Source: an uncultured delta proteobacterium (lineage in GTDB: Bacteria > Desulfobacterota > Desulfuromonadia > Desulfuromonadales > BM103). From it: a stretch of 64,000 bases of DNA. The stretch is from positions 1 through 64,000 of the forward strand of contig CAVQRZ010000014.1 of the NCBI GenBank assembly GCA_963715335.1. Reading direction: 5' to 3'. Shown piece after piece: positions 8,806 to 50,847 of the stretch (position 1 is the first letter of the stretch; each line of letters begins with the position of its first letter). The notes beneath the pieces were generated by a model. It saw only the letters and a program-made list of their open reading frames with translations. It made no database searches and had not been told where the DNA came from. A program made the position numbers and the translations under genes.

Positions 8806-8905
8806 ATTCAGAATCCAGTATCCAGAATCCAGAATTCAGTCAGGCGACTTCGACATTTGGGCTAGATTCTTAATTCTGGATACTGAATTCTTGATACTAG
8901 ATACT
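8806..8905. repeat. Inverted pair of heptamer arrays (AT[CT]CAG[AT])n
   Basis: attcaga atccagt atccaga atccaga attcagt (8806-8840), with a degenerate reverse-complement array at 8866-8905. Confidence 0.85.
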
Positions 8906-8972
8906 CTTTAACATTACACCGGTTAGCTCTACTTCAGACGCTTGCTGAATAGTATCAACAGGAATAGTTGTA

Positions 8973-10127
8973 TTGAACAATATCGACATCCCGAAAATTC
9001 TTCAGCTGGCACCATCCCCGGCCTATGTCGTCGACCTGGGTCGCCTGCGGCATAACCTGGCAATTCTCGACGAGGTGCAGCAGCGCAGCGGGGCGAAGAT
9101 TCTCATGGCGCTGAAGGCGTTTGCCATGTGGAGCACTTTCCCGCTGATTCGGGAAACTCTGCGGGGCGTGTGCGCCTCGTCGCCGTGGGAGGCCCGCCTG
9201 GGGCGGGAGACTTTTGGCGGAGAGGTGCACTCTTTTGCCGCAGCATTCAAGGCGAGGGACATCGCCGAACTTCTGTCGATTTCCGATCACCTGGTGTTCA
9301 ATTCCTTCGGTCAGCTGGAGCGTTTCCGCCCACTCTGGGAGAAGGAACGGAGCAGGGTGTCGATCGGCCTGCGAGTCAATCCCGAACACTCCGAGGGACA
9401 AACGGAAATTTACGATCCCTGTGCCAGGAATTCCCGGCTCGGCATTCCGCGCCGGGAATTCGATGGCAAATCAATGGCCGGGGTGGACGGGCTGCATTTT
9501 CACACCCTCTGTGAGCACCTCTTTGAACCGTTGGCCAGGACCGCGAAAGTTTTCGAGGCGCAGTTCGGCGAATTTCTGCCGGCAATGAAGTGGCTCAATT
9601 TCGGCGGCGGCCACCATATTACCCGTGCAGGGTATGATATCGACGGGCTGGTCGCCCTGGTCAAACACTTCAGGGAGAAGTACAACGTAGAGGTCTACCT
9701 CGAACCCGGTGAAGCCGTTGTCATAGGCACCGGCCTGCTGGTCGGCGAGGTGCTGGACGTGGTGCCGAACGAGATTGAGACGGCAATTCTCGATGTATCG
9801 GCAACCTGCCACATGCCCGATATCCTGGAGATGCCATACCGACCGGAAATCCTGGGCGGGTATGATCCGGGCGTCAAGGAATACACCTACCGTCTCGGTG
9901 GACCGTCCTGCCTCGCCGGTGATATCATTGGCGACTGGTCGTTTGAAAAACCACTGACCCCCGGTGACCGGCTGGCGTTTCTCGACATGGCCCACTACAC
10001 TATGGTCAAGACGACAACATTCAACGGCATCCAGCATCCGCACCTCTGTATGTATGAGCCGGAACTCGAAAGTTTGCGCGTGGTTCGCAGCTTTGGCTAC
10101 GAGGACTTTCGCAATCGTCTGTCGTGA
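8973..10127 (+). CDS. nspC: Carboxynorspermidine decarboxylase
   Basis: LALKAFA-like lysine motif, YDPC..SRLG, HFHTLCE, NFGGGHH, EPGE, CLAGD and YTMVKT..FNG; TTG start. Confidence 0.93.
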   Translation: MNNIDIPKILQLAPSPAYVVDLGRLRHNLAILDEVQQRSGAKILMALKAFAMWSTFPLIRETLRGVCASSPWEARLGRETFGGEVHSFAAAFKARDIAELLSISDHLVFNSFGQLERFRPLWEKERSRVSIGLRVNPEHSEGQTEIYDPCARNSRLGIPRREFDGKSMAGVDGLHFHTLCEHLFEPLARTAKVFEAQFGEFLPAMKWLNFGGGHHITRAGYDIDGLVALVKHFREKYNVEVYLEPGEAVVIGTGLLVGEVLDVVPNEIETAILDVSATCHMPDILEMPYRPEILGGYDPGVKEYTYRLGGPSCLAGDIIGDWSFEKPLTPGDRLAFLDMAHYTMVKTTTFNGIQHPHLCMYEPELESLRVVRSFGYEDFRNRLS

Positions 10128-10158
10128 AATCGTGGCAAGCTTTGGCCGGATATGGAGA

Positions 10159-10251
10159 ATTCAGTATCCAGTATCCAGAATTCAGTAGGAAAGTCTCAAG
10201 CTGTAGGGGTAAATTTTTATTCTGGATTCTGAATACTGGATTCTGAATACT
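10159..10251. repeat. Inverted pair of heptamer arrays (AT[CT]CAG[AT])n
   Basis: 4 units at 10159-10186 and ~5 reverse-complement units at 10219-10251, between nspC and speA. Confidence 0.88.
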
Positions 10252-10267
10252 CACGAAAGGTTCATCC

Positions 10268-12175
10268 ATGGAACGTTGGAGCACAAAACAGGCCGCCAAA
10301 GTCTACAATATCGACAACTGGGGAGATGGCTTTTTCTCAATCAATCGCCGTGGGCACGTCTGTGTGCATCCTTCACCCCACTCGAAATACTCCATTGACC
10401 TGCGAATACTGATGGACGACCTGGTCAAGCGCAAGATCAAGCCGCCGATCCTGCTGCGTTTTATGAATGTTCTGAAAGGCAGGATCGATGCGATCAACCG
10501 CGCTTTTGATTATGCCATTGAGGAGTATGACTACCCGGCCGGCTACCAGACCTTTTTCCCGATCAAGGTCAACCAGCAACGCCAGGTGGTCGAGGCGATC
10601 ACCGAGTTCGGCAAGAAACACAACATCGGCCTCGAGGTCGGTTCGAAGCCGGAACTGGTCGCAGCGATTTCTTTTGCCACCGGCAAAAAGCTGCAGATCA
10701 TCTGCAATGGCTACAAGGACAACGATTACATTGAGACCATCCTCTATGCCAACAAGATCGGCTACGACATCACCATCGTCGTCGAGAAGCTCTTTGAGCT
10801 GGAAAAAATCATTGCCCTGTCGGAGAAGACCGGGATCAAGCCGAAGCTCGGCATCCGGGTCAAGCTTTCCTCGAAAGGAACCGGCAAGTGGGCCACCTCG
10901 GGCGGCAGCGATGCCAAGTTCGGCCTGAAAATTTCCGAGCTGCTTGCTGCTATCGAGCTGCTCAAGGAGCACAAGCTGCTTGGCCAGGTCAAACTTTTGC
11001 ACTTCCACATCGGCAGCCAGATTACCAAGATCGACAAGATCAAGAACGCGCTGGTCGAGGGAGCGCGCATCTACGCTGAAATGAAGAAGATGGGTATCGG
11101 GCTGGAGTATCTTGATGTCGGCGGTGGTCTGGGGGTTGATTACGACGGTTCAAAGTCGAGCTACTTCTCGAGCGTCAACTATTCAGTCGAGGAATATGCC
11201 AACGACGTTATCTACCAGGTGAAGAATATTTGTGATGCCGCCGGGGTGCCCTGCCCGAACATTATTTCCGAATCGGGCCGCGCCATCGTTGCGCACTACT
11301 CGGTGCTGGTCACCAACATTCTCAACACCAATACCCAGAACGCTCTGCCCGATTACGATGACGTGCTTGAGGACGCCACAAAGCTCTCGCCGACCGTAAA
11401 AAAACTCTATGATATTTACCAGAGCCTGGACCGGCATTCGCTGCGTGAGGATTACCATGACACTCTGCAGCTGATCCAGGAGGCTGTCAGCCTGTTCAAT
11501 CTCGGTTACCTGAATTTGCACGAACGAGCCCTGGCCGAGTGGCTCTGCAACAAGATCTTTTTCGAAATCAACGAGATAGTCGGGCGCCTGAAAGATGTTC
11601 CGGATGATCTGCAGAATTTCCAGTTGAGCCTGCGCCAGACCTATTTCGCCAACTTCTCGCTGTTCCAGTCGGTCCCGGATTCATGGGCGATCGACCAGCT
11701 GTTTCCGATCATGCCGCTGCAGAGGCTCAGCCAGAAGCCGGACGTCATGGCGACTGTCGCCGATATCACCTGCGACTCCGACGGTGAGGTGAACAGCTTT
11801 GTCGGCGAGAACGGGCGCAGCAAATATCTGCCGTTGCACAAGGTTCAGAACGGCGAAGAATACTATATCGGTTTCTTCATGATCGGCGCCTACCAGGAAA
11901 TCCTCGGCGACATGCACAACCTGTTTGGCGATACCAACGCCGTGCACATCACCTTCAACAAGAAAACCAATTACATGATTGATACGGTAATCCAGGGCGA
12001 TGCAACCTGGGAAAGCCTTAAATACGTGCAGTACCAGGGCCCCGAAATCCTCAAGCATGTGCGCGACAATCTGGAGAAGCGGGTTGCCCTGCGCAAGATC
12101 TCCTTCGAGGAGACCAGCCATTTCATTGAACTGCTCGACCGGATGTTGATGTCTTACACGTATTTGGGAGAATAG
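10268..12175 (+). CDS. speA: Biosynthetic arginine decarboxylase
   Basis: PIKVNQ, GLEVGSKPEL, HFHIGSQ, DVGGGLG.DYDG, NFSLFQS.PD.WAI and TCDSDG motifs. Confidence 0.95.
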   Translation: MERWSTKQAAKVYNIDNWGDGFFSINRRGHVCVHPSPHSKYSIDLRILMDDLVKRKIKPPILLRFMNVLKGRIDAINRAFDYAIEEYDYPAGYQTFFPIKVNQQRQVVEAITEFGKKHNIGLEVGSKPELVAAISFATGKKLQIICNGYKDNDYIETILYANKIGYDITIVVEKLFELEKIIALSEKTGIKPKLGIRVKLSSKGTGKWATSGGSDAKFGLKISELLAAIELLKEHKLLGQVKLLHFHIGSQITKIDKIKNALVEGARIYAEMKKMGIGLEYLDVGGGLGVDYDGSKSSYFSSVNYSVEEYANDVIYQVKNICDAAGVPCPNIISESGRAIVAHYSVLVTNILNTNTQNALPDYDDVLEDATKLSPTVKKLYDIYQSLDRHSLREDYHDTLQLIQEAVSLFNLGYLNLHERALAEWLCNKIFFEINEIVGRLKDVPDDLQNFQLSLRQTYFANFSLFQSVPDSWAIDQLFPIMPLQRLSQKPDVMATVADITCDSDGEVNSFVGENGRSKYLPLHKVQNGEEYYIGFFMIGAYQEILGDMHNLFGDTNAVHITFNKKTNYMIDTVIQGDATWESLKYVQYQGPEILKHVRDNLEKRVALRKISFEETSHFIELLDRMLMSYTYLGE

Positions 12176-12196
12176 GGCGAAGCTGAAAGCTTCGCC

Positions 12197-12323
12197 GGAA
12201 CGAGGGACGCGGTACGAGGAACGCGGGAAACCATCAAAAACGGGGACACTTTATTTCAAAGTGTCCCCGTTTTAGTTTGCAGATTGTGATTTTCGCGTCC
12301 CGCGCTACGCGTCCCGCGTCCCG
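12197..12323. repeat. Inverted heptamer arrays (GG[GA]ACG[CA])n around a central hairpin
   Basis: ggaacga gggacgc ggtacga ggaacgc (12197-12224); reverse-complement array 12293-12323 overlaps the thiC stop. Confidence 0.85.
12237..12273. terminator. Bidirectional intrinsic terminator between convergent speA and thiC
   Basis: aaaacggggacacttt-atttc-aaagtgtccccgtttt. Confidence 0.7.
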
Positions 12324-13624
12324 GCCTTTCGTTCATTCATGACCTTGTAGGCACAAAATTGGCCACACATGGTGCACGCTCCATGCTCTTCATCAACCCC
12401 CGATTCGGCACGCAGGCGTCGGGCTCTCTCGGGGTCTATGGCGAGGGCGAACTGCCCTTCCCAGTCAAGCGCTTTGCGGCATTTCGCCATGGCGATGTCT
12501 TTTTCGATTGCACCGGGGACGCCCTTGACAATGTCGCCGGCATGGGCGGCGATGCGGCTGGCCATGACCCCTTCGTGGACATCTTCCACGGTCGGCAGAC
12601 GCAGGTGTTCGCTGGCGGTGACGTAACAGAGGAAGTCGGCACCCGCGGCAGCAGCCAGGGTGCCGCCGATAGCACAGGTGATATGGTCGTAGCCGGGAGC
12701 GATATCGGTCACTAACGGTCCGAGTACGTAGAAGGGAGCGCCATGGCAGAGGCGTTTCTGCAACTGGACGTTGGTCTCGATCTGGTTTAACGGCACATGT
12801 CCAGGGCCCTCGATCATCACCTGTACGCCGGCTTTCCAGGCACGCTGGGTCAGTTCGCCGAGCAGGATCAGTTCGTGGATCTGGGCGCGGTCGGTGGCGT
12901 CGGCCAGGCAACCGGGGCGGAAGCCGTCGCCGAGCGAAAGGGTCGCGTCATAAGGTTTGACGATCTCCAGAAGGCGGTCGAAGTGTTCGAACAGGGGGTT
13001 CTCGGCGTTATTGTGGGCCATCCACTCGACGGTGAAGGAACCGCCGCGTGAGACCACTTCCATGATGCGACCCTCGTTGTCCATTCGCTCGACCGTGGCC
13101 CGGGTCACGCCACAGTGCACGGTAATGAAGTCAACGCCGTCATCCAGGTGCTTGACAATGCCATCGAAGATTTCGTCGACAGTCATGTCGACCATTGCCT
13201 TGCCCTTGCGGGTTACAGTATCGACGGCGGCTTGGTAAAGCGGGACCGAGCCGATGCAGGCGTTGGTCTCGTTGATGATTGCGGCACGGATTTCGTCGAT
13301 CGGTCCACCGGTAGACAGGTCCATGATCGCATCGGCACCTGCGGCCACTGCAACGCGGGCCTTTTCCAACTCCTTGTCAATACTGGTGTCGTCCCTGCTG
13401 GTGCCGATGTTGGCATTGACCTTGGTCCGTAGCCCCTTGCCGACTGCGAGCGGGATGCCGTTGCGGTGCCGGTTGTTGTGGCAGATGATCGCTGTCCCCT
13501 CGGCGATGCGCTGGCGCAGGATTTCCGGGTCAATATTCTCGGTCAGCGCGGCCTGCTTCATCTTGTCGGATACGACGCCCTGGCGGGCGAGTTCGAGTTG
13601 GGTCAGTGTACTTTGTTTCTTCAT
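12305..13624 (-). CDS. thiC: Phosphomethylpyrimidine synthase
   Basis: KVNANIGTS, MDLSTGG, VSRGGS, EGPGH, GYDHIT and C-terminal CTMCGQFC. Confidence 0.96.
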   Translation of the reverse strand: MKKQSTLTQLELARQGVVSDKMKQAALTENIDPEILRQRIAEGTAIICHNNRHRNGIPLAVGKGLRTKVNANIGTSRDDTSIDKELEKARVAVAAGADAIMDLSTGGPIDEIRAAIINETNACIGSVPLYQAAVDTVTRKGKAMVDMTVDEIFDGIVKHLDDGVDFITVHCGVTRATVERMDNEGRIMEVVSRGGSFTVEWMAHNNAENPLFEHFDRLLEIVKPYDATLSLGDGFRPGCLADATDRAQIHELILLGELTQRAWKAGVQVMIEGPGHVPLNQIETNVQLQKRLCHGAPFYVLGPLVTDIAPGYDHITCAIGGTLAAAAGADFLCYVTASEHLRLPTVEDVHEGVMASRIAAHAGDIVKGVPGAIEKDIAMAKCRKALDWEGQFALAIDPERARRLRAESGVDEEHGACTMCGQFCAYKVMNERKAGTRDA

Positions 13625-13640
13625 GAATCCTCTTTATTTA

Positions 13641-13670
13641 GGTGAAAGTGAAAAGTAAAAGGTGAAAAGT
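13641..13670. repeat. Heptamer array (GTGAAAA-like) between thiDE and thiC
   Basis: ggtgaaa gtgaaaa gtaaaag gtgaaaa g. Confidence 0.7.
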
Positions 13671-13686
13671 CAAATCCGGTCCTTAC

Positions 13687-15123: not shown

Positions 15124-15135
15124 ATTTTCACCTCA

Positions 15136-15200
15136 GTGAAAGGGGAAAAGTAAAAAGTGGAAAGTGAAAAGAAAGAACTCTTTCCCCTTTTACATTTTAC
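15136..15200. repeat. Inverted heptamer arrays (GTGAAAA-like) in the thiDE leader
   Basis: gtgaaag gggaaaa gtaaaaa gtggaaa gtgaaaa, then ctttcccc ttttaca ttttac. Confidence 0.75.
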
Positions 15201-15210
15201 TGACTACTGA

Positions 15211-15243
15211 ACAAAAAAAGCGCCCGGCTGGTGCCACGGCGCT
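15211..15243 (-). terminator. Intrinsic terminator, expression platform of TPP riboswitch 1
   Basis: Minus strand agcgccgtggcaccagccgggcgct followed by a T-run. Confidence 0.75.
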
Positions 15244-15278
15244 CTACCCGATATCGGGTGTGGTCGTTGCTGTCCAGT

Positions 15279-15370
15279 CCGCTTCCCTCCGCCGGTATGA
15301 TCCGGATCAGGTTCCAAGGGTCGTTCCGTCATGAGACGAAACTCTCAGTAATCTTCTACTCCCCTAGCGG
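15279..15370 (-). promoter_or_regulatory. TPP riboswitch upstream of thiDE-thiC
   Basis: Minus strand ctaggggag...ctgaga...gacccttggaacctgatccggatcataccggcggagggaagcgg matches the THI-box core. Confidence 0.95.
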
Positions 15371-15558
15371 TGGCGCAGTAATGTAGCGGATCACCCGGTC
15401 AGGTCAGGCCAATCCGGTTGTTCAGTGTTTTTTCTCCTGAATCGCGGCAGCGATGGCACGGTGCCTGGCGAAGACATCAATCTGCCGCATAAGTTCAAAC
15501 TTAGATGATCTGACTCGGTCAGCGTAGAATATTGCGAGAGGGGCTGTCAACTTTTAAA

Positions 15559-15657
15559 GCGGAGGCTTAAGGGCGGAGGCTGGAGACTGGGGGCTGGCAG
15601 GAGCTTTGATCTAAACCCCAGTCCCCTCCAGCCTCCGCCGTCCAGCCCCCGCTTTTA
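15559..15657. repeat. Inverted heptamer arrays (GCGGAGG/CTGGAG[AG]) upstream of alr
   Basis: gcggagg cttaagg gcggagg ctggaga ctggggg ctgg, with a complementary array at 15616-15657. Confidence 0.75.
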
Positions 15658-15729
15658 ACTTTACACCTTTCAAAGCCGCATGATTTAATATTTCCCTCTG
15701 GTTTCGGATCAATCTCTGTGGAGTTGTTT

Positions 15730-16866: not shown

Positions 16867-17215
16867 GCTAAAAGGAGTGAGAGGACGACTCTTCTGCAAA
16901 AACCAGGAGTCAGCATTCAGTCTGCAAGGCTCCGGATTCAGAATGAACGCGACTGGCCTCGACTGCCCTGAAAAGGGTTGCCTTACTGCCAGAGCCCATG
17001 TTAGATAAAGCCTCCTCTGCGACCACTGGAGGCTGGCCAGTTTGCATGCCTATCCGGTGGATGAAAGTCTCATAAACGACTGGATAGTCTGACCGCAAAA
17101 ATCTGGACGCTGATTGAGGCAGAAAAGAGTGATTTTTTAAATCAGCTTTTATCAAGATTTTATCAGTGGCCAATTCACAAGTTGGATCTAAAAATACTAA
17201 ACAAGAGGTTCTGCC

Positions 17216-18781: not shown

Positions 18782-18786
18782 GCGAA

Positions 18787-20281
<1,495 letters not shown>

Positions 20282-20293
20282 CGATTCAACGCC

Positions 20294-20461
20294 GGGACGC
20301 GTGACGCGGCACGAGGGACGCGGAGGTCAAAAGCGATATTGAGGTTTTAACACTCATCGCTGAATTATTCATTCTAATCGGCACTTTTAGTCAGATAGGA
20401 CTTAATTTATGGACAAAGGTTTGAGGTTGTCGCGTCCCGCGTCCCTCGTCCCGCGTCCCGG
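20294..20461. repeat. Inverted heptamer arrays (GGGACG[CA])n between purD and purE
   Basis: gggacgc gtgacgc ggcacga gggacgc (20294-20321); cgcgtcc cgcgtcc ctcgtcc cgcgtcc (20431-20458); AT-rich spacer. Confidence 0.88.
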
Positions 20462-20481
20462 CTTTCAAAGAGGTTGTATCG

Positions 20482-23502: not shown

Positions 23503-24044
23503 AGCAAGGGGACATGTACTCGTTACGTGTCCCCTTTGCTATTGTCTACTGAAATTCAAAGATAAAATCAAAATCAAAACCCGGGGGTTGCGCCCCCCGA
23601 CTGCGCCTTACTCTTTTGCTGGCCTAAAAGAGTAAGCAGAAAAGGGCCTGCGCTGCGCTGGGCATGTCTGGCTCGGCAGGGCGGCAACCTCAATCCGGAT
23701 GGTTCTAAACGATCAAGAGTCTACGCTTCCCCCACAGGAGCCAAGGCTCTTGAGAGCCTCTCCTGCTGTGGAGGCTTGCAAAGAGTTGTCATGTTTCGTG
23801 GCTTTTCCCTTGTAAGTCACACGGCAAGGTCAGGCCCTTTGACACAGGGCCGGATCCCCATCACAGAAGGTTATTGAAGTCACAGACATCCGGCAGAGGA
23901 GATGCCCTCCGCAAGGAGAAGGCACTTTTGCATACTTTTGTTGCCGGACAAAAGTATGGCGTCGGGCGGGACGCGACCCGCCGGTTTTGCTTTTAAGCAT
24001 TTCAAGAAAAGGAAAGAGGGCAACAGATGAACCCTCTATTACCT
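23503..24044 (+). repeat. Large palindromic dispersed element, copy 3
   Basis: Core colinear with copy 2; left hairpin is agcaaggggacatgta...tacgtgtcccctttgct; right end gggcaacagatgaacc. Confidence 0.92.
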
Positions 24045-25640: not shown

Positions 25641-25985
25641 GGAACTGGCCTTTCGGGAGCGATATTATCTGTTTAGTTTATGCTTTGCGTTTATCGGAAG
25701 TCAATGGTCCGAAATGGGAAGTGGGAGGCGCGAGGCGCGAACAACAAAATCTGCAAGGCAAAACCTTCTTTGGCCAAAGAGCACCTCCGATCGAATCAAA
25801 TTAATGCATTAAAGGGACAAATGGGTTTAGTTCTCTAAGCGAGCTCCGCGCAATGAAGAGGGTTCTTCTCGTCCGCGCGCCACGCACCACTGGTGTTTGA
25901 GGCAAACCAACGGAGAATTCAACAAGTCCGTAGCTCATGATAGACTCCCGAGCTTATTTAACACCCTTTTCACAAGAGGCCACCC

Positions 25986-27341: not shown

Positions 27342-27495
27342 CGCTGTGTATACGTATTTATACCAATATACAGCCATACGTTTTTCTGTTACTTAAAACA
27401 TCAGGGAATAATTTATGTAATTTGTGTGTTGATTAAAGATAAGCATTCCCTGAGTTGGAAGAGTCAAAAGAGCGTCGATTGTGGAGTGAGTAACA

Positions 27496-27574
27496 CTCTG
27501 TAAAGGCAAAATCAGGGCAACTTGATGGCGCAAAGCCACGGGTCCTCAACAGAGGATCGTCGGGCTCCCGGGGG
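27496..27574 (+). promoter_or_regulatory. Cyclic di-GMP-I (GEMM) riboswitch
   Basis: aaaggcaaa-atcagg-gcaa-cttgat-ggcgcaaagcc-acgggtcctc-aaca-gaggatcgtcgggc; GNRA-capped P2 and P3 as in GEMM. Confidence 0.8.
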
Positions 27575-30754: not shown

Positions 30755-31465
30755 AAGGAACCCTTTTTATCTCTCGATTTATCAACCTGGCCAAAGTCAC
30801 GATTCTTGCGCAATTATGACACAAACGCTGAAGCAAAGTCATCTTCTGGCGCCGGTTGCGTTGACTTGTTGTTCAAAAGACAGCGGATTGTAAATGAATG
30901 GAAGTCCTATCACAATGGGTATGCGCACACATACAATATGCTCATAAGCACAGTGGATGTTAATGACGTCACGATGGATTTTTGCGCGGCACACGCATAG
31001 TTCTCGTCAAGGATTCAATAGCTCAACAACCATTGGTTCCTTGCTATGGCAGGCGGGGCTGAGATAATCTTTTCCAAACCCTTCTAACGAAGTGAACAGG
31101 CTTGCCCCACAGGCAATTAATCTTAGCCGCTCCGAATCACCTTAGAGCCTCTGGTTGGCCACAAAAAAAGTCTGGGGTAAGTTGGTGTGGAAGATATCCT
31201 CCGGCAGCGGAGGAAACCTGTGAAGCTGGTGGCCAGTTATGGTATTCTCGAGGAAATAAGGTCGCCCACGACAGGGCCTTCAATCGGCTTGGTTTATGAC
31301 CAAACAATATCTTGTAAACGGTTGCTTTGTCATGATGACCATGCCACGATACAAACGAAACCGAGATAAGCTTTTGCCTACCATCAGATTCGATCAGGTT
31401 TTATCTGTGGCTAATCATACGAGGTTTTCGATTCTCCATACCTCGCACTTCGCAGCTCACACCTC

Positions 31466-32221: not shown

Positions 32222-32224
32222 TTC

Positions 32225-32289: not shown

Positions 32290-32559
32290 ATCAAAGACAA
32301 AACCGGCGGGTCGCGTCCCGCCCGACGCCATACTTTTGTCCGGCAACAAAAGTATGCAAAAGTGCCTTCTCCTTGCGGAGGGCATCTCCTTGGCCGGATG
32401 TCTGTGACTTCAAGAACCTGTACTGATGGGGATCCGGCCCTGTGTCAAAGGGCCTGACCTTTTTGTTTAATTTACCAGGGAAAAGCTAAAACAACCCCTA
32501 CCGACGCAAACCTCCACGAAAGGAGAGGCTCTCACGAGCCTCGGCTCCTTCGGGGGGAG
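32290..32559 (-). repeat. Large palindromic dispersed element, copy 4 (truncated, inverted)
   Basis: Reverse complement of the right arm and centre of copies 2, 3 and 5; breaks off near 32559. Confidence 0.9.
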
Positions 32560-32910: not shown

Positions 32911-33777
<867 letters not shown>

Positions 33778-33780
<3 letters not shown>

Positions 33781-33939
33781 GGCGCGTAGTGCGTGGCGAG
33801 AAAAACAGAACAATACTTTAACGCAAAGACGCTAAAGAGAAAGCAAGACGTAAAGATTGATTCTATAGGGCTAAACTTAAAAATTGTCTTTCTTGGCCTT
33901 CCTTTGCGTCTTGAGTGAGCAAAGCGAACGGGCGTTAAA
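33778..33939. repeat. Heptamer array plus ACGCAAAG-type inverted element between glyQ and glyS
   Basis: gtgaggc gcgtagt gcgtggc, then tttaacgcaaagacgc (33817) ... ctttgcgtc...gcgttaaa (33939). Confidence 0.75.
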
Positions 33940-33965
33940 ATAGCTTTCATAAAACGGAGCAATAA

Positions 33966-36234: not shown

Positions 36235-38895
<2,661 letters not shown>

Positions 38896-38900
38896 ACAAC

Positions 38901-39854: not shown

Positions 39855-40030
39855 AACCGGTTTGCGGTTCGCGGGACGAGGAACGCGAAAAGCGAAAAGC
39901 TTTAACGCAAAGACGCAAAGGGTAATAAAGAGGTTGCATAGATACGAACGACTCAAGACGACAGGGTTCCCCTTTGCGTCTGTCGAGTTATCTTTCTTTC
40001 TCTCTGCATTGATCAATGCTTTGTTTCTGA

Positions 40031-40723
40031 ATGGAATTCTCAAACCTGCACTCCTGGGATTTAAACCCTCAAGAAGCCATTGTCCTGCAGAAGGAATTGG
40101 CCGGCCAGGTTCTGCTCGAAAACACCCTTGCTCATGGTCCTGGGACGGTTGCCGGAGTTGATGTCTCCTATAAAAAGCGGGGACGCCTTTTACATGCCGC
40201 TATCGTTGTTCTGGACTACGAATCTTTGGAAATTATGGAGTCGGTTACGGCCAGTGGTGAAGTTCTCTTCCCCTATGTGCCGGGGCTGTTGTCTTTCCGT
40301 GAATTGCCAATTCTGCTGCAAGCCTTTGGAAAGTTACAGACGCGTCCAGACGTCATCCTGGCCGATGCGCAAGGGATTGCCCATCCGCGCAGGCTCGGTC
40401 TTGCCAGTCACCTTGGCCTCTGGCTTGGGTTGCCGACGATCGGATGTGCGAAAAGCCGGCTTTGTGGTGTCCATGGGGAACCAAGGTTGATAAAAGGTGA
40501 GTGGGCCGAACTTGTCGATGATGGCGCGAGTGTTGGCCGGGTTGTATGCACCAAGGACAGAGTCAAGCCGCTTTATATCTCGCCCGGACACAAAATCAAT
40601 GCACATCTCTCGGCTGAGATTGTTTTGCAATGCTGCCGGGGGTATCGTCTTCCTGACCCTACCCGTCAGGCCCACCTGTTGAGCAACAGGGCCAGGTCAG
40701 AGTATCAAGCGCGCGGCGGGTAA
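40031..40723 (+). CDS. nfi: Endonuclease V
   Basis: GVDVS, FPYVPGLLSFRE, GIAHPR..GLA.H, GCAKS and LP.P.R.A. Confidence 0.93.
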   Translation: MEFSNLHSWDLNPQEAIVLQKELAGQVLLENTLAHGPGTVAGVDVSYKKRGRLLHAAIVVLDYESLEIMESVTASGEVLFPYVPGLLSFRELPILLQAFGKLQTRPDVILADAQGIAHPRRLGLASHLGLWLGLPTIGCAKSRLCGVHGEPRLIKGEWAELVDDGASVGRVVCTKDRVKPLYISPGHKINAHLSAEIVLQCCRGYRLPDPTRQAHLLSNRARSEYQARGG

Positions 40724-40743
40724 CGCGTGGTGCGGCACCTTTG

Positions 40744-41395
40744 TCAGGCAACAGTAACATTCAAAGTACCGACTCGTTCAACCGTCGCCTCTAGCCTGTC
40801 GCCACTCACAATCCTGCCGACGCCTGAAGGTGTGCCGGTCAGCAGGACGTCCCCTTCTTCAAGGGTAAAATACGTTGAGGCAGCGGCAATCAATTCCGCG
40901 ACCGAACGCATCATGTCTCCAGTGTTGCCGTTCTGGCGCAGCTCACCGTTGATGGCCAACTTGATCTGCAGGTTTTGCGGATCACCAATCTGGTCTGCGG
41001 GCACGAAGGCTGAGAGCGGGCAAGCTGTGTCGAAGGCCTTGGCGATCTCCCAGGGCAGGCCTTTTTCTTTCTGGGTGCTCTGGATGTCGCGCAGGGTCAG
41101 GTCCAGGGCAACGGCATATCCCGTCACGTGGTCCAGGGCGTCGTTCGCATCGATGTTTTTGGCCTCGGCGCCGATCAGGACGGCAAGCTCGACCTCGTGA
41201 TGGCAATCTTTCGAATGGGGCGGGATGACGACCGTTCCGCCCTCGGCGATAATCGAACTGGCCGGCTTGATGAAGATCACCGGCTTGTCGGGAATCCTGG
41301 TTGCCGAGTTCCTTGATGTGCTCGATGTAATTGCGACCGATGCAGACGATCTTGCCAACCGGAATATTCTTGTTGCCGAGTTTTACGGTGTGCAT
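40744..41395 (-). pseudogene. Fumarylacetoacetate hydrolase family protein with a +1 frameshift near 41296 (probably a sequencing error)
   Basis: GKIVCIGRNY.EH..EL from ATG 41395; P.IF.KP, HHEVEL, D.T.RD and TGTP.GVG lie in the next frame. Confidence 0.88.
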
Positions 41396-41573
41396 ATTGA
41401 TCTCCGGGAAAACCTTGGATTGAAGAACTTTATAAAATTTAACGCAAAGACGCAAAGCTGCAAAGAGAAACCGTATCAAAATAAGGTTGATGGTGAATAA
41501 TGTGAATGTCAATCCAGCTTCATACTGCTATATTTAAAGCACCGGATAAATCGACAACAGCAAGAGAAGCTCC

Positions 41574-42749
41574 ATGTTCCTGCCGATCGGCGATGTGCCA
41601 AACCCCAAAACGACCCCCTATGTCAACTGGCTGTTGATCGGGATCAACATTGCCGTGTTCATCGTCGTCACGATGCCACTGAGTGCGGCCCGTCCGGCGC
41701 TTGATGATCCGGCTCTGCTCGACTATTTGAAACTGATCGGGGCGCAGGGGGATTGGCCGGCGCCGCTGATTTACCAGCATGTCTCGGCTTACGACCTGGT
41801 GGTGTTCAAGTACGGCTTCAGGCCAGCCGAATTTTCACTGATGAGCATGTTCACGGCGATGTTCATGCATGGCGGGTGGATGCACCTGGCCGGCAACATG
41901 CTGTTTTTGTGGATTTATGGCGACAATGTCGAGCATCGACTCGGACATGTTGGCTACCTGGTCTCTTATCTTGCCGCCGGGCTTGCCGCGACGCTTTTTT
42001 TCGCCATGTTCGTGCCCAACTCGCAGATCCCGATGCTTGGAGCGTCAGGGGCCATTTCCGGGGTCCTCGGCTTTTATTTCCTCTGGTTTCCGCGCAACCA
42101 GATCAAGGTATTCGTCTTTCTCTTCCCCCTGATTATGACTACCCTGTTGATCCCGTCGCGCATCGTCCTCGGGGTTTACCTGGTAATCGACAATCTCCTG
42201 CCTTTTATGATGAAATCCGCGGAAGGCAGCGGGATCGCCCACGGTGCGCACATCGGCGGGTTCCTGGCCGGCCTCGGGCTGGCCATGGCAATCGATCGCC
42301 TGCCGGGGGTGTTGAGGGTGAAAAGGGCTGTTCCGAAGCCAAGCCGCAAACCGGCCAACCATGTGGATGCCGTGACAGATATCGTCCGCTCGATCGACCG
42401 TGACGACCTGTCGCATGCGGTGTCGCGGTATGCAGAACTGGAAAGTCGCGCGCAACGCGGTCGGCTCACGACACCCCATCTTCTTGCGATCGGTGATTAC
42501 CTGCTGGCCAGTGAAGAGCCGGACGAGGCGCTGACGGTCTACCGGAGACTGATCGCCGAACGGCCCGGAGACCTGAGCCTTGACCAGGCCTACCTGGGGG
42601 CAGGACGCGCCATGCTGCGCAAGGACCGTTGTGAGACGGCGGCCTGGCATTACCTGGTCGCCGCCGTCGATCTCGCACAGTCAACGGAAGTTGCCGATGC
42701 TGCTAAGCGCTACATGAAGATGATTGAGGAGCCGGGGGATGGTGGCTAG
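41574..42749 (+). CDS. Rhomboid family intramembrane serine protease with a TPR-like C-terminus
   Basis: H.G..H..GNM, GASGA and AH.GG; helical soluble tail. Confidence 0.88.
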   Translation: MFLPIGDVPNPKTTPYVNWLLIGINIAVFIVVTMPLSAARPALDDPALLDYLKLIGAQGDWPAPLIYQHVSAYDLVVFKYGFRPAEFSLMSMFTAMFMHGGWMHLAGNMLFLWIYGDNVEHRLGHVGYLVSYLAAGLAATLFFAMFVPNSQIPMLGASGAISGVLGFYFLWFPRNQIKVFVFLFPLIMTTLLIPSRIVLGVYLVIDNLLPFMMKSAEGSGIAHGAHIGGFLAGLGLAMAIDRLPGVLRVKRAVPKPSRKPANHVDAVTDIVRSIDRDDLSHAVSRYAELESRAQRGRLTTPHLLAIGDYLLASEEPDEALTVYRRLIAERPGDLSLDQAYLGAGRAMLRKDRCETAAWHYLVAAVDLAQSTEVADAAKRYMKMIEEPGDGG

Positions 42750-42866
42750 GGGCTGGAGACTGGTCATCCAGACCTGAAGCCATGCTTGCATAGCGTTAGC
42801 AAACAAAACACAAATTTGCGGGAAGGACTCGGTTTGACTGTCCCCGAGCCCCCGCCAACGGAATCT

Positions 42867-43742: not shown

Positions 43743-43764
43743 GACGGGATTGGTCCTGGATTTC

Positions 43765-44244
43765 GGGCAACAGATGGTTCATCTGTTGCCCTTTGCCGTT
43801 GTTCTTTGGAATTCAAAGATAAAAGCAAAACCCGGGGGTCGCGCCCCCCGACTGCGCCTTACTCTTTTGCTGGCCCAAAAGAGTAAGCAGAAAAAGGCCT
43901 GCGCTGCGCTGGGCATGTCTGGTGCGTCAGTGCGGCAACCTCAACCCGGATCGTTCTAAACGATCAAGAGTCTACGCTTCCCCCGCAGGAGCCGAGGCTC
44001 TTGAGAGCCTCTCCTGCTGTGGAGGCTTGCGTCGGTCGAGGTTGTTTTGGCTTTTCCCTGGCAAATCACACGGCAAGGTCAGGCCCTTTGACACAGGGCC
44101 GGATCCCCACAGTAAAGGTTTTTGAAGTCACAGAGATCCGGCAGAGGAGATGCCCTCCGCAAGGAGAAGGCATTTTTGCATACTTTTGTTGCCGGACAAA
44201 AGTATGGCGTCTGGCGGGACGCGACCCGCCGGTTTTTCTTTTAA
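43765..44244 (+). repeat. Large palindromic dispersed element, copy 5
   Basis: Starts gggcaacagatggttcatctgttgccc; colinear with copies 2 and 3; right terminal hairpin missing. Confidence 0.92.
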
Positions 44245-44269
44245 CTGTAGGTTTTCAACTTTTTGGTAA

Positions 44270-46039: not shown

Positions 46040-46106
46040 GTATGGCCTGGTAATGATTCCAGCAGTTTAGATTGTCATTACCATTCTACTGGAGATCGGG
46101 CCAAGC

Positions 46107-46727
46107 TCAAGTCGAGAAAGCCTTTGCTGCGCATTTCGGGGAAGAGGCTGCGATGATGGCAGAGATCAGGGCAATGCCATGTGCGCCCGCTGCCCGAACC
46201 TCGGCGGCCCTTTCCGGGGTGATGCCACCAAGCGCGAAGACCGGAAGCGGGCTGTTTCGGCAGGCATCAGCAAGGGCCTTCAAGCCCTGGGGGGCACCGT
46301 AAGCGGCTTTGGATGGAGTGGCGTAAACGGGACCGAAAGTGACGAAGTCGGCTCCCTGCTCGAAGGCTGCCCGGATCTCCTCGCTGTCGTGCGTGGAAAC
46401 CCCGATCAGCATCTCCGCACCGACCTGTCTGCGAACAAGATCTGTCGCAAGGGAACGCCCGCCGAGGTGGACACCGTCGGCTTCTACAGCAAGGGCGATA
46501 TCAACATGGTCGTTGATCAGCAGCAGGGCGTCGTACTGCCGGGTCAAGGTGCGAAGCTGCCGTGCCAGCGGCAGGAGCTGATCGGCGGGAAGATCTTTTT
46601 CACGGAGCTGGACTGCTTTGACGCCACCCTGCAGCGCAGATTCAATGGCGGACGTGAGAGAGTGCCCGGTCGCGACCTGGTGACGGTTGGTGATCAGGTA
46701 GAGATTGAAATCGACGAAACGAGACAT
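46107..46727 (-). CDS. thiE: Thiamine-phosphate synthase
   Basis: LYLIT, QLREK, IND, GVHL, GVSTH and ALGGI. Confidence 0.88.
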   Translation of the reverse strand: MSRFVDFNLYLITNRHQVATGHSLTSAIESALQGGVKAVQLREKDLPADQLLPLARQLRTLTRQYDALLLINDHVDIALAVEADGVHLGGRSLATDLVRRQVGAEMLIGVSTHDSEEIRAAFEQGADFVTFGPVYATPSKAAYGAPQGLKALADACRNSPLPVFALGGITPERAAEVRAAGAHGIALISAIIAASSPKCAAKAFST

Positions 46728-46739
46728 GGGAAATCCGAA

Positions 46740-46858
46740 GCGCGAGGCACGAAGTGCGAAAAAGATTTTAATCTAATCAGGCGACTAAACTATAACTGGT
46801 TGGCTCAAACATTACCTGTGTTAGCCAGTTTCTCTCACCTCTCACCTCTCACCTCGCT
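46740..46858. repeat. Inverted heptamer arrays between thiH and thiE
   Basis: gcgcgag gcacgaa gtgcgaa (46740-46760); tctcacc tctcacc tctcacc tcgc (46833-46857) overlaps the thiH stop. Confidence 0.8.
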
Positions 46859-47986
46859 CTTCTCAATCGAATCCCGATTGAGAAAAGCATTATCCCAATC
46901 CTTCCACACCGGGTCATAACCACGCGCCCTGAGGATATCAGCAATTTCGGCCGGAGTGCGATCGTCATCGATCTTGAACTGCTCGGTAGCGGAGCCTTGT
47001 TCGGCATAACCGCCGGGGGCGGTACAGGAACCGGCACTCATCTGGGTGATGCCGAGAGGCAGCAGGTTGTCGCGCAGGTCAGCACTCTCCCGGGTGGACA
47101 GGACCAGCCCGGCGTCGTGAAGCAGGAGGCGCATGGCGCACAGCAGTTGTACGAACTGCCGGTCGGAGACCGGGTGGGGGGGCTGGAAGCCGCCTTCGGC
47201 AGGGCGCAAGCGCGGGAAAGAAACGGTCAGCAGGGTGCGCCAGTAATGATGCGCCAGGTAGCGGCCGTGCAAGCCGGCGAAGAAGGCTTCGCTGCGAAAA
47301 TTCCCCAGTCCCAGCAGGAAGCCGATACCGATCCGGCGCAGGCCCGCCGTTCCGCCCCGCTCTGGGGTCTCCAGGCGAAAGCGGTAGTCCCGCTTGCGCC
47401 CGCTCGGATGAAGCTGTGCGTAGAGCTCCTGGTTGTAAGTCTCCTGGTAGATCGTCAGGGCATCGACTCCGGCGTCAACCATTTCCCTGTAGCCATCGGT
47501 CTCCATCGGGTAGACTTCAATGCCGATCGATGAGAAAAGCGGTCTGATCCGTTTCGCCGCCGCCGCAATGAAGTCGTTGCCAATCAGGCCCGGTGCTTCA
47601 CCGGTCAGCAGCAAAATGTGACGGAAGCCTTGATCATGCAAAATCCGGGCATCTTTCTCGACCTCGTCGAGGGTCAGGGTGCGGCGCGGAATCTTGTTGT
47701 GCACCGAGAACCCGCAATAGAGACAGCTGTTGTGACACTCGTTGGAGAGATAGAGCGGCGCGTAAAGCAGCACGGTACGACCGAACCGGCGCAACGTGAT
47801 GGAGTGGGCTTTCCGAGCGATCTCTTCGAGGAACTCCTCGGCGGCCGGCGAGAGCAGGGCCATGTAGTCGCGGTTGTCGATCTGCTCCGCGGCCAGCGCC
47901 CGTTGAACATCCGTTGCGGTCATTGCCTCGATTTGGTTCATGACCAGTTGCGGATCGTATTTTTGAATGATGTCGTAGAAGCTCAT
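46835..47986 (-). CDS. thiH: 2-iminoacetate synthase
   Basis: YAPLY.SN.C.N.C.YCGF, YQETY, S.PR.RP and S.T.PGGY. Confidence 0.94.
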   Translation of the reverse strand: MSFYDIIQKYDPQLVMNQIEAMTATDVQRALAAEQIDNRDYMALLSPAAEEFLEEIARKAHSITLRRFGRTVLLYAPLYLSNECHNSCLYCGFSVHNKIPRRTLTLDEVEKDARILHDQGFRHILLLTGEAPGLIGNDFIAAAAKRIRPLFSSIGIEVYPMETDGYREMVDAGVDALTIYQETYNQELYAQLHPSGRKRDYRFRLETPERGGTAGLRRIGIGFLLGLGNFRSEAFFAGLHGRYLAHHYWRTLLTVSFPRLRPAEGGFQPPHPVSDRQFVQLLCAMRLLLHDAGLVLSTRESADLRDNLLPLGITQMSAGSCTAPGGYAEQGSATEQFKIDDDRTPAEIADILRARGYDPVWKDWDNAFLNRDSIEKSEVRGER

Positions 47987-48009
47987 AAAAATCTCTAGGG
48001 AATCAAGCA

Positions 48010-48087
48010 TCCAGAATTCGGTATTAAGAAGAAAATCTTCAAAGCTTTTGATCCTTTGCTGAATTCTGAATACTGGCTACTGAATAC
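48010..48087. repeat. Inverted heptamer arrays between thiG and thiH
   Basis: atccaga attcggt attaaga ... gctgaat tctgaat actggct actgaat act. Confidence 0.75.
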
Positions 48088-48864
48088 TTAAAGTTGTTTC
48101 CTCAAAAATCCTGTCAACGGACTGCTCGCTTCCGCCTTGTCCTGCTGTTTGCCGAGCCCGGCGAGGTAGGCTTCGCGGCCTGCTTCGACGCCTTTTCTAA
48201 AAGCGGCAGCCATGGCACCGGGGTCGCGGGCGACGGCCAGGGCGGTATTGACCAGCACGGCATCGGCGCCCATTTCCATCGCTTCCGCTGCATGGGAGGG
48301 GGCACCGAGTCCGGCATCAACCACCACAGGTACGGTGGCCTGCTCAATGATAATGGCGATGTTGTCGCGGGTCCGTAACCCCTTGTTGGTGCCGATCGGT
48401 GCGCCGAGAGGCATGACCGTTGCGGTCCCTGCTTCCTGAAGGTGTTTGGCCAGCACCGGGTCGGCGTTTATGTAGGGCAGGACGATAAAGCCTTCCTTGA
48501 CCAGGACCTCTGCGGCCTTGAGAGTTTCGATCGGGTCTGGCAACAGGTAATAGGGGTCCGGTGTGACTTCAAGCTTGATCCAGGGCTCGCAACCTGCGGC
48601 ACGGGCAATTCTGGCCAGGCGAATCGCTTCCTCGGCATCGCGTGCTCCACTGGTATTGGGCAGCAACAGGTAGCGCTTCGGGTCGATATGTTTGAGCATG
48701 CTGTCCTGGGGATTGTCGATATCCACCCGACGCATGGCCACGGTAACGATCTCGCTGCCTGAACCTTCCATAGCCGCGACCATCGCTTCGTTTGACGCAA
48801 ACTTGCCGGTGCCGACCATCAGCCGTGAGTTGAAAGAGCGTCCGGCAATTATCAGTTGATCCAT
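48088..48864 (-). CDS. thiG: Thiazole synthase
   Basis: SRL.VGTGKF, LPNTSG, WIKLEV, MPLG.PIG and DAG.G.PS. Confidence 0.96.
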
Positions 48865-48899
48865 TGTTAAATTCCTTGGGAATGATGGAGTGTTCAGGT

Positions 48900-48948
48900 G
48901 CCAGTATTCAGAATCCAGAATCCAGAATCCAGAATCCAGAATCCAGGA
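48900..48948. repeat. Heptamer tandem array (ATCCAGA)n between thiS and thiG
   Basis: gccagt attcaga, then four perfect atccaga units, then atccagg. Confidence 0.9.
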
Positions 48949-48964
48949 ATTCTCGTTTTAAGTT

Positions 48965-49165
48965 TTATCCCCCCCCGACAAAGTGGATGACTTCCAGGGT
49001 GTCGCCGTCTTTCAAGGCGGTTTCCGCCAATCGCTGGCGCGGGATAATCTGGTGATTATGTTCCACCACGACCTGCAGGCAATCCAACCGCAGCTGATCG
49101 AGCACTTCCTGTATGGAGGTGCCGGCCATCAGTTTGCGCGGTTTGCCGTTGAAGAGGATATCCAT
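48965..49165 (-). CDS. thiS: Sulfur carrier protein ThiS
   Basis: 66 aa ubiquitin-like protein ending FVGGG. Confidence 0.93.
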   Translation of the reverse strand: MDILFNGKPRKLMAGTSIQEVLDQLRLDCLQVVVEHNHQIIPRQRLAETALKDGDTLEVIHFVGGG

Positions 49166-49183
49166 TGATTGAAAACCTTTGGT

Positions 49184-49260
49184 ATTCAGTAGCCAGTATC
49201 CAGAATTTAAGGAGAGAGTCGAAGGATGGTTATTCATCCCTTCTGGGTACTGGATACTGA
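49184..49260. repeat. Inverted heptamer arrays between thiF and thiS
   Basis: attcagt agccagt atccaga ... ttctggg tactgga tactga. Confidence 0.78.
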
Positions 49261-49267
49261 CGTATGA

Positions 49268-50080
49268 TTAATTTTCCTCCGGGGCTTGACCCAGCAACAG
49301 ACGTAACACGGCGTTGGCCTGGTGATGCGCGGCGACCCCTACCCGGGGGGCCATCAGGCCTGTTCCGGGCGCCGCCGCGGTACTGCCGTCGCCGCAGAGG
49401 TAGAGATTGTTCCCGACTCTTTGCGTTATGATGGTGTTGGCAGGGCCGAAACCTGCCATGCCGGAGCCGGTCACAATCGGTCGGTCCGGGAAACGGGTAG
49501 CGAATGTCTCGACCAGCATGACTTTCTGGTCCGCCAGATCGAAGGCCTCGGCCAGGACCTGGGCATGGCCGAAGACTTCCTTGATGTTGGCGGGAGTCAG
49601 ACGCAGGTGGCAGGCCGTGACCCGCACATAGGGGTTGATGCGGGCCAGGGTATCGCGCAGGGCGTAGACCTTGGGTAGCCCGATCTGGTCGACGAAGTAT
49701 TGCTGGCGATTCAGATTGGAAGGCTCGACGACATCGAAGTCGGCAATGATCAGGTGACCGACACCGGTGCGGGCCAGCGCGATCGCAATCGCCGAGCCGA
49801 GACCGCCGACTCCGGCAATCCCGATCGTGGCGCCCTTGACAGCCTGGTGGACCCCCGGGGTATGCCGTGCGGTCAACAGGGCGTCAAGTTCATCAGCGCC
49901 AGGAACCTCACCGCGCCGGATCAGGACCACCTGGTCGCCGTTGTTCAGGACCGCCTCTGCGGAAGCCGGGAAACCGTTGACGATGATCAGGTCGGCGTCC
50001 GCCTTGATGCGATCCCTGAGCGAACCGGCGGTTTCATTTTCCCGGGCAGTATGCTTCTGCTCGTTGACTGTAATCTGCAT
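49268..50080 (-). CDS. thiF: ThiS adenylyltransferase with an N-terminal ThiS-like domain
   Basis: GVGGLGS, DFDVVE.SNLNRQ and EAFD; short ubiquitin-like N-domain. Confidence 0.9.
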   Translation of the reverse strand: MQITVNEQKHTARENETAGSLRDRIKADADLIIVNGFPASAEAVLNNGDQVVLIRRGEVPGADELDALLTARHTPGVHQAVKGATIGIAGVGGLGSAIAIALARTGVGHLIIADFDVVEPSNLNRQQYFVDQIGLPKVYALRDTLARINPYVRVTACHLRLTPANIKEVFGHAQVLAEAFDLADQKVMLVETFATRFPDRPIVTGSGMAGFGPANTIITQRVGNNLYLCGDGSTAAAPGTGLMAPRVGVAAHHQANAVLRLLLGQAPEEN

Positions 50081-50137
50081 AGGCCACAATCTTCAGTTAA
50101 CGCAAAGGGTCAACTTGGTGCAGGTTGCTCTCTCTGC

Positions 50138-50169
50138 AAAACAAAAAGAGCCGCATAGGACGGCTCTTT
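50138..50169 (-). terminator. Intrinsic terminator, expression platform of TPP riboswitch 2
   Basis: Minus strand aaagagccg-tcctatg-cggctcttt followed by ttgtttt. Confidence 0.75.
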
Positions 50170-50190
50170 CCGGTAGATATCCGAAATTTG

Positions 50191-50280
50191 CGCCGCTTCC
50201 CTACGCCGGTATAACCCGGATCAGGTTCAAGGGGTCGTCTGCCGTGCAGACTCTCAGTAGTCGCTACTCCCCCAGGGCGT
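50191..50280 (-). promoter_or_regulatory. TPP riboswitch upstream of thiFSGHE
   Basis: Minus strand gggggag...ctgaga...gaccccttgaacctgatccgggttataccggcgtagggaag. Confidence 0.95.
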
Positions 50281-50434
50281 GTTGCTTGCTCTGTACCAAT
50301 GAAGATTAACAGGCGGCTTTAACCGCAGTCAACAGGAAAGCCGCCTTTTCGGTTGTCACGATGAAAAGCTTCGACTAGGATGGAATCTTTCCAGGTCTTT
50401 CGGGTTGTCTCAACAGTTATGAAAGGATCCACCA

Positions 50435-50752
50435 ATGAGTATTTCCACCCGCTTCCGGGATATCTCGCGGGACGTTGCGGATTTCCATGAAAGCCTGGCC
50501 AGCCAAACCGGGTCTCCGTCCAAAGGTGTGCGGGATGTCAAAAAGGCCAGCAACGGGCTTGCCGAATGGGCAGAACAGGTCGGAGAGGTCCCCCGCATGA
50601 GCCTTGAATACAAGCTGACACCGATCCTGCTGAAAGCCCACAACGACCTGGACCGGGCCCGGTTGAGCTTCGAGGAAGAAGACCTTGATGAATCGGTAGC
50701 GAAAGCCTGGGAGCTACAGCAGAAAATTTATCGATTGCTGAATGATCTTTGA
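50435..50752 (+). CDS. Hypothetical protein
   Basis: 105 aa helical ORF with host-like codon use and AAGGA upstream; no family recognised. Confidence 0.7.
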   Translation: MSISTRFRDISRDVADFHESLASQTGSPSKGVRDVKKASNGLAEWAEQVGEVPRMSLEYKLTPILLKAHNDLDRARLSFEEEDLDESVAKAWELQQKIYRLLNDL

Positions 50753-50847
50753 AACACATTGGTGCGAAGTGTGTCGCGCGTGGCGCGTGGCGCGAAAAAG
50801 ATAAAAATCTTGACGGCCCTTTACGGATTTCCAGCCTTTCCCCGCCC

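Follow-up and report, generated by a model that had tools for sequence, protein, structure and literature searches.

The question raised by this locus is why junction after junction between its genes carries short arrays of 7 bp repeats, often as inverted pairs around a short spacer. The window, as we call the whole stretch of 64 000 nucleotides that was analysed (G000:C14:1-64000), comes from a 3.3 Mb genome in 43 contigs of an uncultured bacterium of the Desulfuromonadales. Our study suggests that the window pairs are likely to be gene-less copies of a small selfish cassette, the cargo of which is a four-helix-bundle gene of PF05635, and that this cassette probably spreads to neighbouring junctions after its protein has bound its own repeats. 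The pairs are read in this way because their arms are the same as those enclosing PF05635 genes elsewhere in the genome. That the arm families originate from cassettes has good support, and we hold it with confidence; protein-driven local spread is a hypothesis and, in its detail, a tentative one. The earlier note on this DNA, made from the letters alone, had described the arrays and proposed a dedicated system of either RNA stems or empty landing sites for cargo genes. Its observation is confirmed and its interpretation partly supported.

A sequence-agnostic periodicity scan found period 7 to be prominent in both the window and the genome, as the note had anticipated, with 75 runs scoring at least 13 genome-wide at period 7, 35 at its multiple 14 and at most 9 at any other period tried. 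A motif-free detector returned 176 non-coding arrays of at least 15 bits at period 7, against one to five in three shuffles, and clustering resolved these into six families, A to F (seven profiles, two of which were merged as A). Rescanning the genome with the family profiles gave 327 arrays of at least 24 bits (0 and 2 in two shuffles), a count that is not independent of training because the profiles were learnt from the same genome; 11 of the 327 lay inside called genes or at contig ends. The genome held 105 pairs (90 same-family and 15 mixed-family) and 117 single arms, and the window 32 arrays of at least 20 bits, comprising 10 inverted pairs and 12 single arms. The profiles recovered 29 of the 30 arrays for which the earlier note had named a position, missing only the partner at 25875, but its GCGCGAG/GTGAGAG group was split into two families, B and C.

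Each pair is a single unit with both arms of one family. Same-family inverted neighbours within 400 bp faced one way in 89 cases and the opposite way in one, and the first arm was purine-rich in every array of five families. The claim that the purine-rich arm always comes first was too strong only for family A, in which it applied to 68 of 74 arrays with a slight bias (mean 0.57). As an inverted pair reads identically on both strands, this polarity is uninformative about transcription. Spacers were, as first described, unrelated (the longest match among 73 was 11 bases) and AT-rich (mean GC 0.39 vs 0.56 for the window), and their lengths formed a continuum between 0 and 151 bp. Adjacent units of a 3-5-unit arm were identical in 4-21 % of cases, near to random draws from the family pool; such short arms combine about four variants of the unit, unlike slippage runs, and may be better explained as a degenerate binding site than as a copy of a palindrome. 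A few long arms were homogeneous runs, as at 48889-48948, with runs of 8-16 units elsewhere.

Array position was defined most sharply by the upstream gene. With gene ends taken from a purpose-made gene caller, which missed some AT-rich genes, the outer edge of an arm lay within 15 nt of a stop codon in 131 of 165 cases (median 4 nt), while the median distance to the start codon was 21 nt, so that the start region of the next gene was usually left free. The description of these sites as operon junctions stood in part, as co-directional junctions were mildly enriched (170/205 array junctions vs 2292/2912 of all junctions and 940/1395 gaps of at least 100 bp), but the sharp feature is the stop codon. 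Two further ideas were rejected: that arms act as stop codons in all frames, since inspection showed first arms without any stop codon in several families, and that the outer edge carries an inverted copy of the upstream gene end, which was seen at 8 bases in 5/127 vs 13/2788, too few cases.

The evidence for a cassette origin comes from the cargo. The genome encodes three intact PF05635 genes (107-123 bits vs a cut-off of 33.8; TIGR02436 103-116 bits vs 24; GC 0.38-0.45), and all three lie between same-polarity inverted arrays, of families E, B and C (the family-E gene at C23:173572-173886 and the family-C gene at C25:188790-189095); a fourth copy, frameshifted and with family-A arms, was found at the meaB/mce junction. 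Furthermore, 122 loci were examined, these being the top PF05635 matches in the order and phylum, and 115 rows were kept once duplicates, short flanks and short matches had been dropped, the genome's own family-B gene falling out in this way. A period-7 array lay within 230 bp of the gene in 97 of the 115 rows compared to 41/300 random genes, and on both sides in 74 rows compared to 5/300. Of the remaining 18 rows, 17 carried period-8 or -9 arrays, the random-gene control covering period 7 only. Plasmid examples from cyanobacteria and Bacteroidota had period-7 arrays on both gene sides in three of four cases. The proposed tie between a dedicated system and four-helix-bundle cargo, of the type found in rRNA intervening sequences (IVS), was thus supported by loci outside the window. 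PF05635 was present in 143/301 genomes of the phylum.

Mapping the cassettes of relatives onto the genome identified seven junctions with adjacent orthologous genes, and all seven were array-bearing: three held the intact genes, one the frameshifted copy at meaB/mce, and three (cysD/cysN, guaB/guaA and manC/manB) a gene-less pair where relatives carry a four-helix-bundle gene. These last three further support the tie to cargo. As had been noted, none of the window's 10 pairs encloses a PF05635 open reading frame (ORF). A directly repeated arm spanned the gene in 30 of the 74 two-sided loci. Other cargo can occupy such arms, as in the congener G001, where a ParD-like/ParE-like gene pair lies within family-E arms at the speA/thiC junction (L047:2413-2924). 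At the yicC/gmk junction (L001:797-1465, minus strand), the second arm of a family-E cassette is apparently read as a Pro/Ser/Ala-rich start of guanylate kinase, and the cargo gene is partly duplicated in some congeners.

The cargo protein was modelled as four helices (pLDDT 97), with a TM score of 0.92 to 2GSC (Xcc0516) and 0.83 to the Avd structure 4DWL. Its sequence-level homologues in the PDB, 2GSC and 2RLD, have five chains each, and these, together with a reference title, suggest that it forms a pentameric ring. The protein has a pI of about 9, and 93 of 114 cores were net positive. The four-helix-bundle fold is not known to have catalytic activity. A catalytic partner was sought in the genome and none was found, as the 43-contig assembly has no PF00078 (reverse transcriptase) match and no arrays were present at its two Y1 transposase genes.

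Arm sequences followed the protein. Across pairs from different host families, arm units tracked protein clades (Mantel rho 0.125, above all 2000 permutations) in a FastTree phylogeny of 114 proteins and 120 columns, in which many forks were unresolved. Where two proteins came from different host families and had no flanking gene in common, units within one mismatch were shared by 17/50 close vs 67/3783 distant pairs. Family A corresponded to the clade of the broken gene, families E and F to their own clades, and B, C and D to one clade. This correlation shows linkage, not binding. Local clustering was also evident. Sites within 1.5 kb shared a family in 24/57 cases (null 12.1), with no effect further out. 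Around the cassettes of relatives, 33 of 55 arrays lying more than 450 bp away matched the arms of the cassette, 31 of the 33 without a second gene nearby; in genomes with at least two differently armed cassettes, 16/26 such arrays matched the near cassette and 0/26 another. One heptamer pair lies in frame within a CpsB/CapC-like gene (G000:C25:188246-188404; L002). Its family varies by genome and, by eye, equals that of the cassette just upstream in five of six genomes (G003 left out); the frame is broken in G002 and G004, and the insert is absent in two distant homologues. This pair and two comparisons at junction 25560 hinted that arms might be written around retained host sequence, an idea that did not hold up as a general rule (2/15).

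Between close species, the unit found at a given junction is exchanged for another, GxxExxY cassettes included. The four congeners carry different elements at the same junctions, and comparison with the nearest, G002, in which coding DNA is about 92 % identical, showed the same family at 8 of 17 comparable window junctions, a different one at 8 and a decayed element at 1. When both arms changed family, the spacer usually changed too (median similarity 0.20, null 0.24). The gap between thiF and thiS is at most 18 bp in 22/29 genomes of the family, the stop and start overlapping in G003 and G004, and three genomes have a family-A pair. Swapping by long homologous recombination was rejected, as 120-bp tiles of the flanking coding DNA gave no visible mosaic, a test that short tracts would escape. 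Recent copying of whole gene-less units was likewise rejected on the absence of shared spacers, which REPINs lack too.

The competing elements with 8- or 9-base arms belong to GxxExxY (PF13366) genes. Such nuclease cassettes have the same layout and use the same junctions, but differ in cargo and in an arm period of 8 or 9 instead of 7, and the expectation that GxxExxY genes would lie between heptamer arrays therefore failed. Both flanking genes were shared with a four-helix-bundle locus at 7/29 GxxExxY loci. The meaB/mce junction illustrates the exchange, since across 28 genomes (30 loci fetched, two without an adjacent gene) it holds a GxxExxY gene in 13, a four-helix-bundle gene in three and no cargo in 12. 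Behind the broken four-helix-bundle gene of the present genome lies an apparent remnant of a GxxExxY arm; no intact PF13366 gene was found in this genome, only gene-less arms. Nested elements occur at window positions 33777 and 39864, and also inside several spacers. REP-like palindromes and other non-heptamer elements were seen at the same junctions (L118, L124, L158, L333, L335, L336 and others of genus g10), so that these sites attract several element classes. At the junction before nspC in G029 (L122), a short ORF lies between other palindromic arms; by eye, it resembles what we take to be a small endonuclease.

The following mechanism would accommodate these observations. Like its solved homologues, the protein would form a basic ring of five subunits, which may bind four or five degenerate heptamers on single-stranded RNA or DNA. 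Binding would favour a cis-biased process in which enzymes of host recombination or repair copy the armed unit into junctions close by. Loss of the gene would follow, either cleanly, when directly repeated arms recombine, or through decay; alternatively, it may never have been copied. A broader proposal, which we regard as doubtful when taken as a whole, is that of a transposase-free selfish class in which a five-subunit Avd-like ring would read its own four to five degenerate heptamers, one per subunit, on single-stranded nucleic acid and drive armed units into the nearest junctions and even into in-frame coding loops. Rival lineages and GxxExxY cassettes would overwrite each other at the same stop codons, and this class would be the source of both intergenic heptamer repeats and ORF-bearing rRNA intervening sequences.

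Several results weigh against the cassette reading and its mechanism. The landing-site idea found no support at the window's own junctions, as no four-helix-bundle or GxxExxY gene was found among 139 loci covering them. Coding remnants were sought in gene-less pairs and around single arms, and the meaB/mce pseudogene was the only one found, so an origin by gene loss is not shown for the gene-less pairs. Non-array DNA was repeated across the gene in only 3/115 rows. Arms were mostly 4-5 units long (242/327 arrays), a peak whose lower bound is set by the detection threshold. The mapping of families to clades is not one to one, given that one clade carries B, C and D, and the joint inheritance of gene and arms means that the clade link does not prove binding. 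Local arrays matching a cassette showed no upstream or downstream bias (18 vs 15). Finally, the abundance of family A across 61 genomes, scored with a DNA query that detects close unit variants only, does not follow the matching gene: among seven genomes with at least 12 family-A matches, an intact gene of the matching clade was found in one, the present genome having a broken copy, and three other genomes with such a gene had 0-1 matches.

REPINs are the nearest working analogy. In a rival, REPIN-like account, an enzyme of the host or of a transposon moves the armed hairpins, which are not autonomous, and the four-helix-bundle gene is a passenger inactive on the arms. REPINs associated with RAYT genes are described as inverted repeats of the same group with unique spacers, present as many gene-less copies per cognate gene and as several groups per genome (PMC3337134). 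This layout recurs here in the predominance of same-family pairs (90/105), the 73 unrelated spacers, the several groups per genome and the gene-less sites, which outnumber armed genes by about 50 to 1 (215 sites, four genes). The toxin–antitoxin pair of G001 is further evidence that other cargo is possible, and two array-rich genomes, G007 and G029, have no PF05635 match at all. Nonetheless, the arms are tandem heptamers and not palindromes, spacing is continuous and not fixed, 15 of 105 pairs are of mixed family, and the cognate gene encodes a four-helix bundle and not a Y1 transposase; neither of the two Y1 genes has an array within about 1 kb. A pure passenger also does not predict own-family clustering or a clade link across junctions, although linkage could give both. 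We consider this account unlikely.

Less probable still is that the pairs are host elements selected as mRNA stems (RNase III sites, stabilizers or protein-binding sites) that tune expression between genes, a reading raised in the earlier note. In its favour, seven of eight window pairs fold clearly beyond shuffles (z -2.7 to -7.6; the eighth -1.7), the downstream start region is spared, the genome encodes RNase III, and the Coxiella IVS is reported to be cleaved by RNase III at the start of the first heptamer (PMC4990558). This reading is weakened by the finding that partner arms are not tuned for pairing: true partners were no more complementary than random arms of the same family, and slightly less so in families C (0/5000 permutations as low) and A (p 0.01). 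Median pairing was 76 %, the transcribed strand was not the more stable one (30 vs 45 of 75, p 0.09), and a T-run followed the stem in only 8/75 co-directional pairs, which also distinguishes the pairs from intrinsic terminators. Moreover, close relatives have other elements or none at these junctions, and a coding sequence contains one of the pairs in frame. Polymerase slippage followed by mirroring through template switching, with no dedicated system, has been cited in print as an explanation for heptamer repeats (PMC4692102). The homogeneous long arms (48889-48948 and the runs of 8-16 units) agree with it, and mirror copying does occur, as the purH/purD junction with its fold-back spacer demonstrates. 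As an origin, slippage is largely refuted and very improbable, because neighbouring units in arms of 3-5 units are so rarely identical, partner arms are not copies of each other, and it leaves unexplained the fixed polarity, the stop-codon position, the small number of families and their association with a single gene family.

Among known systems, the closest to the proposed cassette is the IVS in 23S rRNA. In helix 45 of Coxiella burnetii, terminal inverted repeats surround a four-helix, PF05635-type (S23p) ORF; the arm consists of tandem heptamers of variable number, and the element is low in GC and patchily distributed (PMC4990558). All of these traits, including arms capable of forming a stem, are shared with the elements described here. 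The window pairs and the three armed genes, in contrast, lie between protein-coding genes (Rfam finds no rRNA in the window), and the sites number about 215 in the genome, fall into six families and almost always lack a gene, with stems about 76 % paired. The system behaves as an rRNA intervening sequence would if transferred to operons, and its gene-less population resembles that of REPINs; it belongs to neither family. Kinship between Avd, of the diversity-generating retroelements, and PF05635 has been stated (PMC10053308), and published descriptions present Avd as a barrel of five subunits that is positively charged and functions together with RNA (PMC6182149). The cargo protein has the same fold and a weak profile match, but NF033474 scored 32 bits vs a cut-off of 80 and no reverse transcriptase was found in the genome.

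Intergenic period-7 arrays are reportedly known as short tandemly repeated repetitive (STRR) sequences or long heptameric simple repeats, in work by Mazel in 1990 and Mrazek in 2007. Tandem intergenic arrays of this kind are present here, but homogeneous runs are confined to a few long arms and are not seen in arms of 3-5 units. Heptamers of Xanthomonas are described as intergenic inverted pairs of one orientation, with 70-75 cases per genome, near the upstream gene and variable between species (PMC4692102). That paper, covering Xanthomonas and Nostoc, treats one G-rich family as quadruplex DNA; its main text contains neither 'helix bundle' nor 'intervening', and it reports no link with mobile elements (PMC4692102). 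The six families described here, most of them not rich in G-runs, are linked to a cargo gene. Inverted pairs of heptamers have been published, as have rRNA intervening sequences with heptamer arms, each on its own, and no paper that connects such arms with PF05635 genes in operons was found in the literature searched, subscription journals and supplements being outside its scope. Our study adds the rapid swapping at junctions, the GxxExxY cassettes at the same junctions, the own-family arrays near cassettes and the lack of pairing optimization.

Within the window, the arrays are distributed among polyamine, thiamine, purine and glycyl-tRNA synthetase genes (gene names are labels for Pfam matches). 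A single first arm of family C (6009..6044, plus strand, 38 bits) lies directly behind the stop codon of fructose-bisphosphate aldolase. Family-A pairs occupy the junctions of a saccharopine-dehydrogenase-like gene with an nspC-like gene (8796..8905; 56 and 52 bits; fold z -6.0), where elements with 8/9-base arms take its place in three congeners, and of the latter gene with speA (10151..10251; z -6.4). Between the convergent speA and thiC is a family-D pair (12196..12323; z -7.6) with a terminator-like hairpin in its spacer. Family F provides a single arm at the thiC/thiDE junction (13645..13674), the partner of which overlaps the end of thiDE in congeners, and a weakly folding pair in the thiDE leader (15135..15213; 37 and 20 bits; z -1.7). 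The latter sits between thiDE and the first of two thiamine pyrophosphate (TPP) riboswitches (15267-15375, minus strand); the second is at 50181-50283 (minus strand), and a c-di-GMP-I riboswitch is at 27495-27572 (plus strand). Alanine racemase has a family-E pair upstream (15561..15650; z -6.8) and a degenerate single first arm of family A behind its stop codon (16897..16944, plus strand, 26 bits), the latter unlisted in the earlier note. A GxxExxY gene lies directly upstream of purH, at what may be the place of this arm, in G019 and G039 (L241 and L245).

The family-A pair at the purH/purD junction (18787..18992; z -19.3) is replaced by family E in all four congeners, none of which has its near-perfect fold-back spacer (18812-18965). 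The long ORF at purD, 19019-20281, does not share the frame of the start codon at 19009, and similarity to relatives begins only at residue 30; this indicates either a one-base frameshift or an assembly error. At purD/purE lies a family-D pair (20293..20460), and families D or F recur here across the bacterial family. Single arms on the plus strand follow: a family-C first arm upstream of mgtE (25706..25741), with its partner near 25875 below threshold; a family-C second arm directly before recO (31440..31465); a family-B first arm overlapping the glyQ stop (33777..33800), with a gene-less element bearing GxxExxY-type arms after it (about 33818-33945); a family-D first arm (39864..39900) followed by a remnant with such arms; a family-B first arm at the end of endonuclease V (40708..40734, 26 bits), also previously unlisted; and a family-E first arm overlapping the end of a rhomboid gene (42728..42763), where three congeners have full pairs.

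The remaining thiamine genes carry a family-C pair at thiH/thiE (46715..46865; z -4.1, the stem being mismatched at intervals of about 7 bp), where all four congeners have an element with 8/9-base arms, and family-A pairs at thiG/thiH (48000..48091; z -2.7) and at thiF/thiS (49182..49259), the latter junction being empty in most relatives. The long single family-A arm at thiS/thiG (48889..48948, 74 bits) gives way to a family-D pair in three congeners. Single first arms of family B (50760..50794) and, weakly and newly listed, family C (59593..59616, 24 bits), both on the plus strand, complete the set. A separate gene-less repeat of 0.44 kb occurs in the window at 23561-24000, 43821-44244, 4474-4905 and 56625-57077, and partially at 32293-32559; it has 56 matches of at least 300 bp in the genome and many in congeners.

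In summary, bacteria are known to carry an unexplained excess of 7-base repeats between genes, and PF05635 is widespread without a known function outside Avd. If the protein recognizes its own arms, these two puzzles would share one answer. The pairings of protein clades with arm families offer ready cognate and non-cognate pairs for a binding test, and so make the 7-base-repeat puzzle testable. Fast swapping of such units at housekeeping junctions would also alter start regions, the ends of genes and the termini of proteins in a way that has been overlooked.

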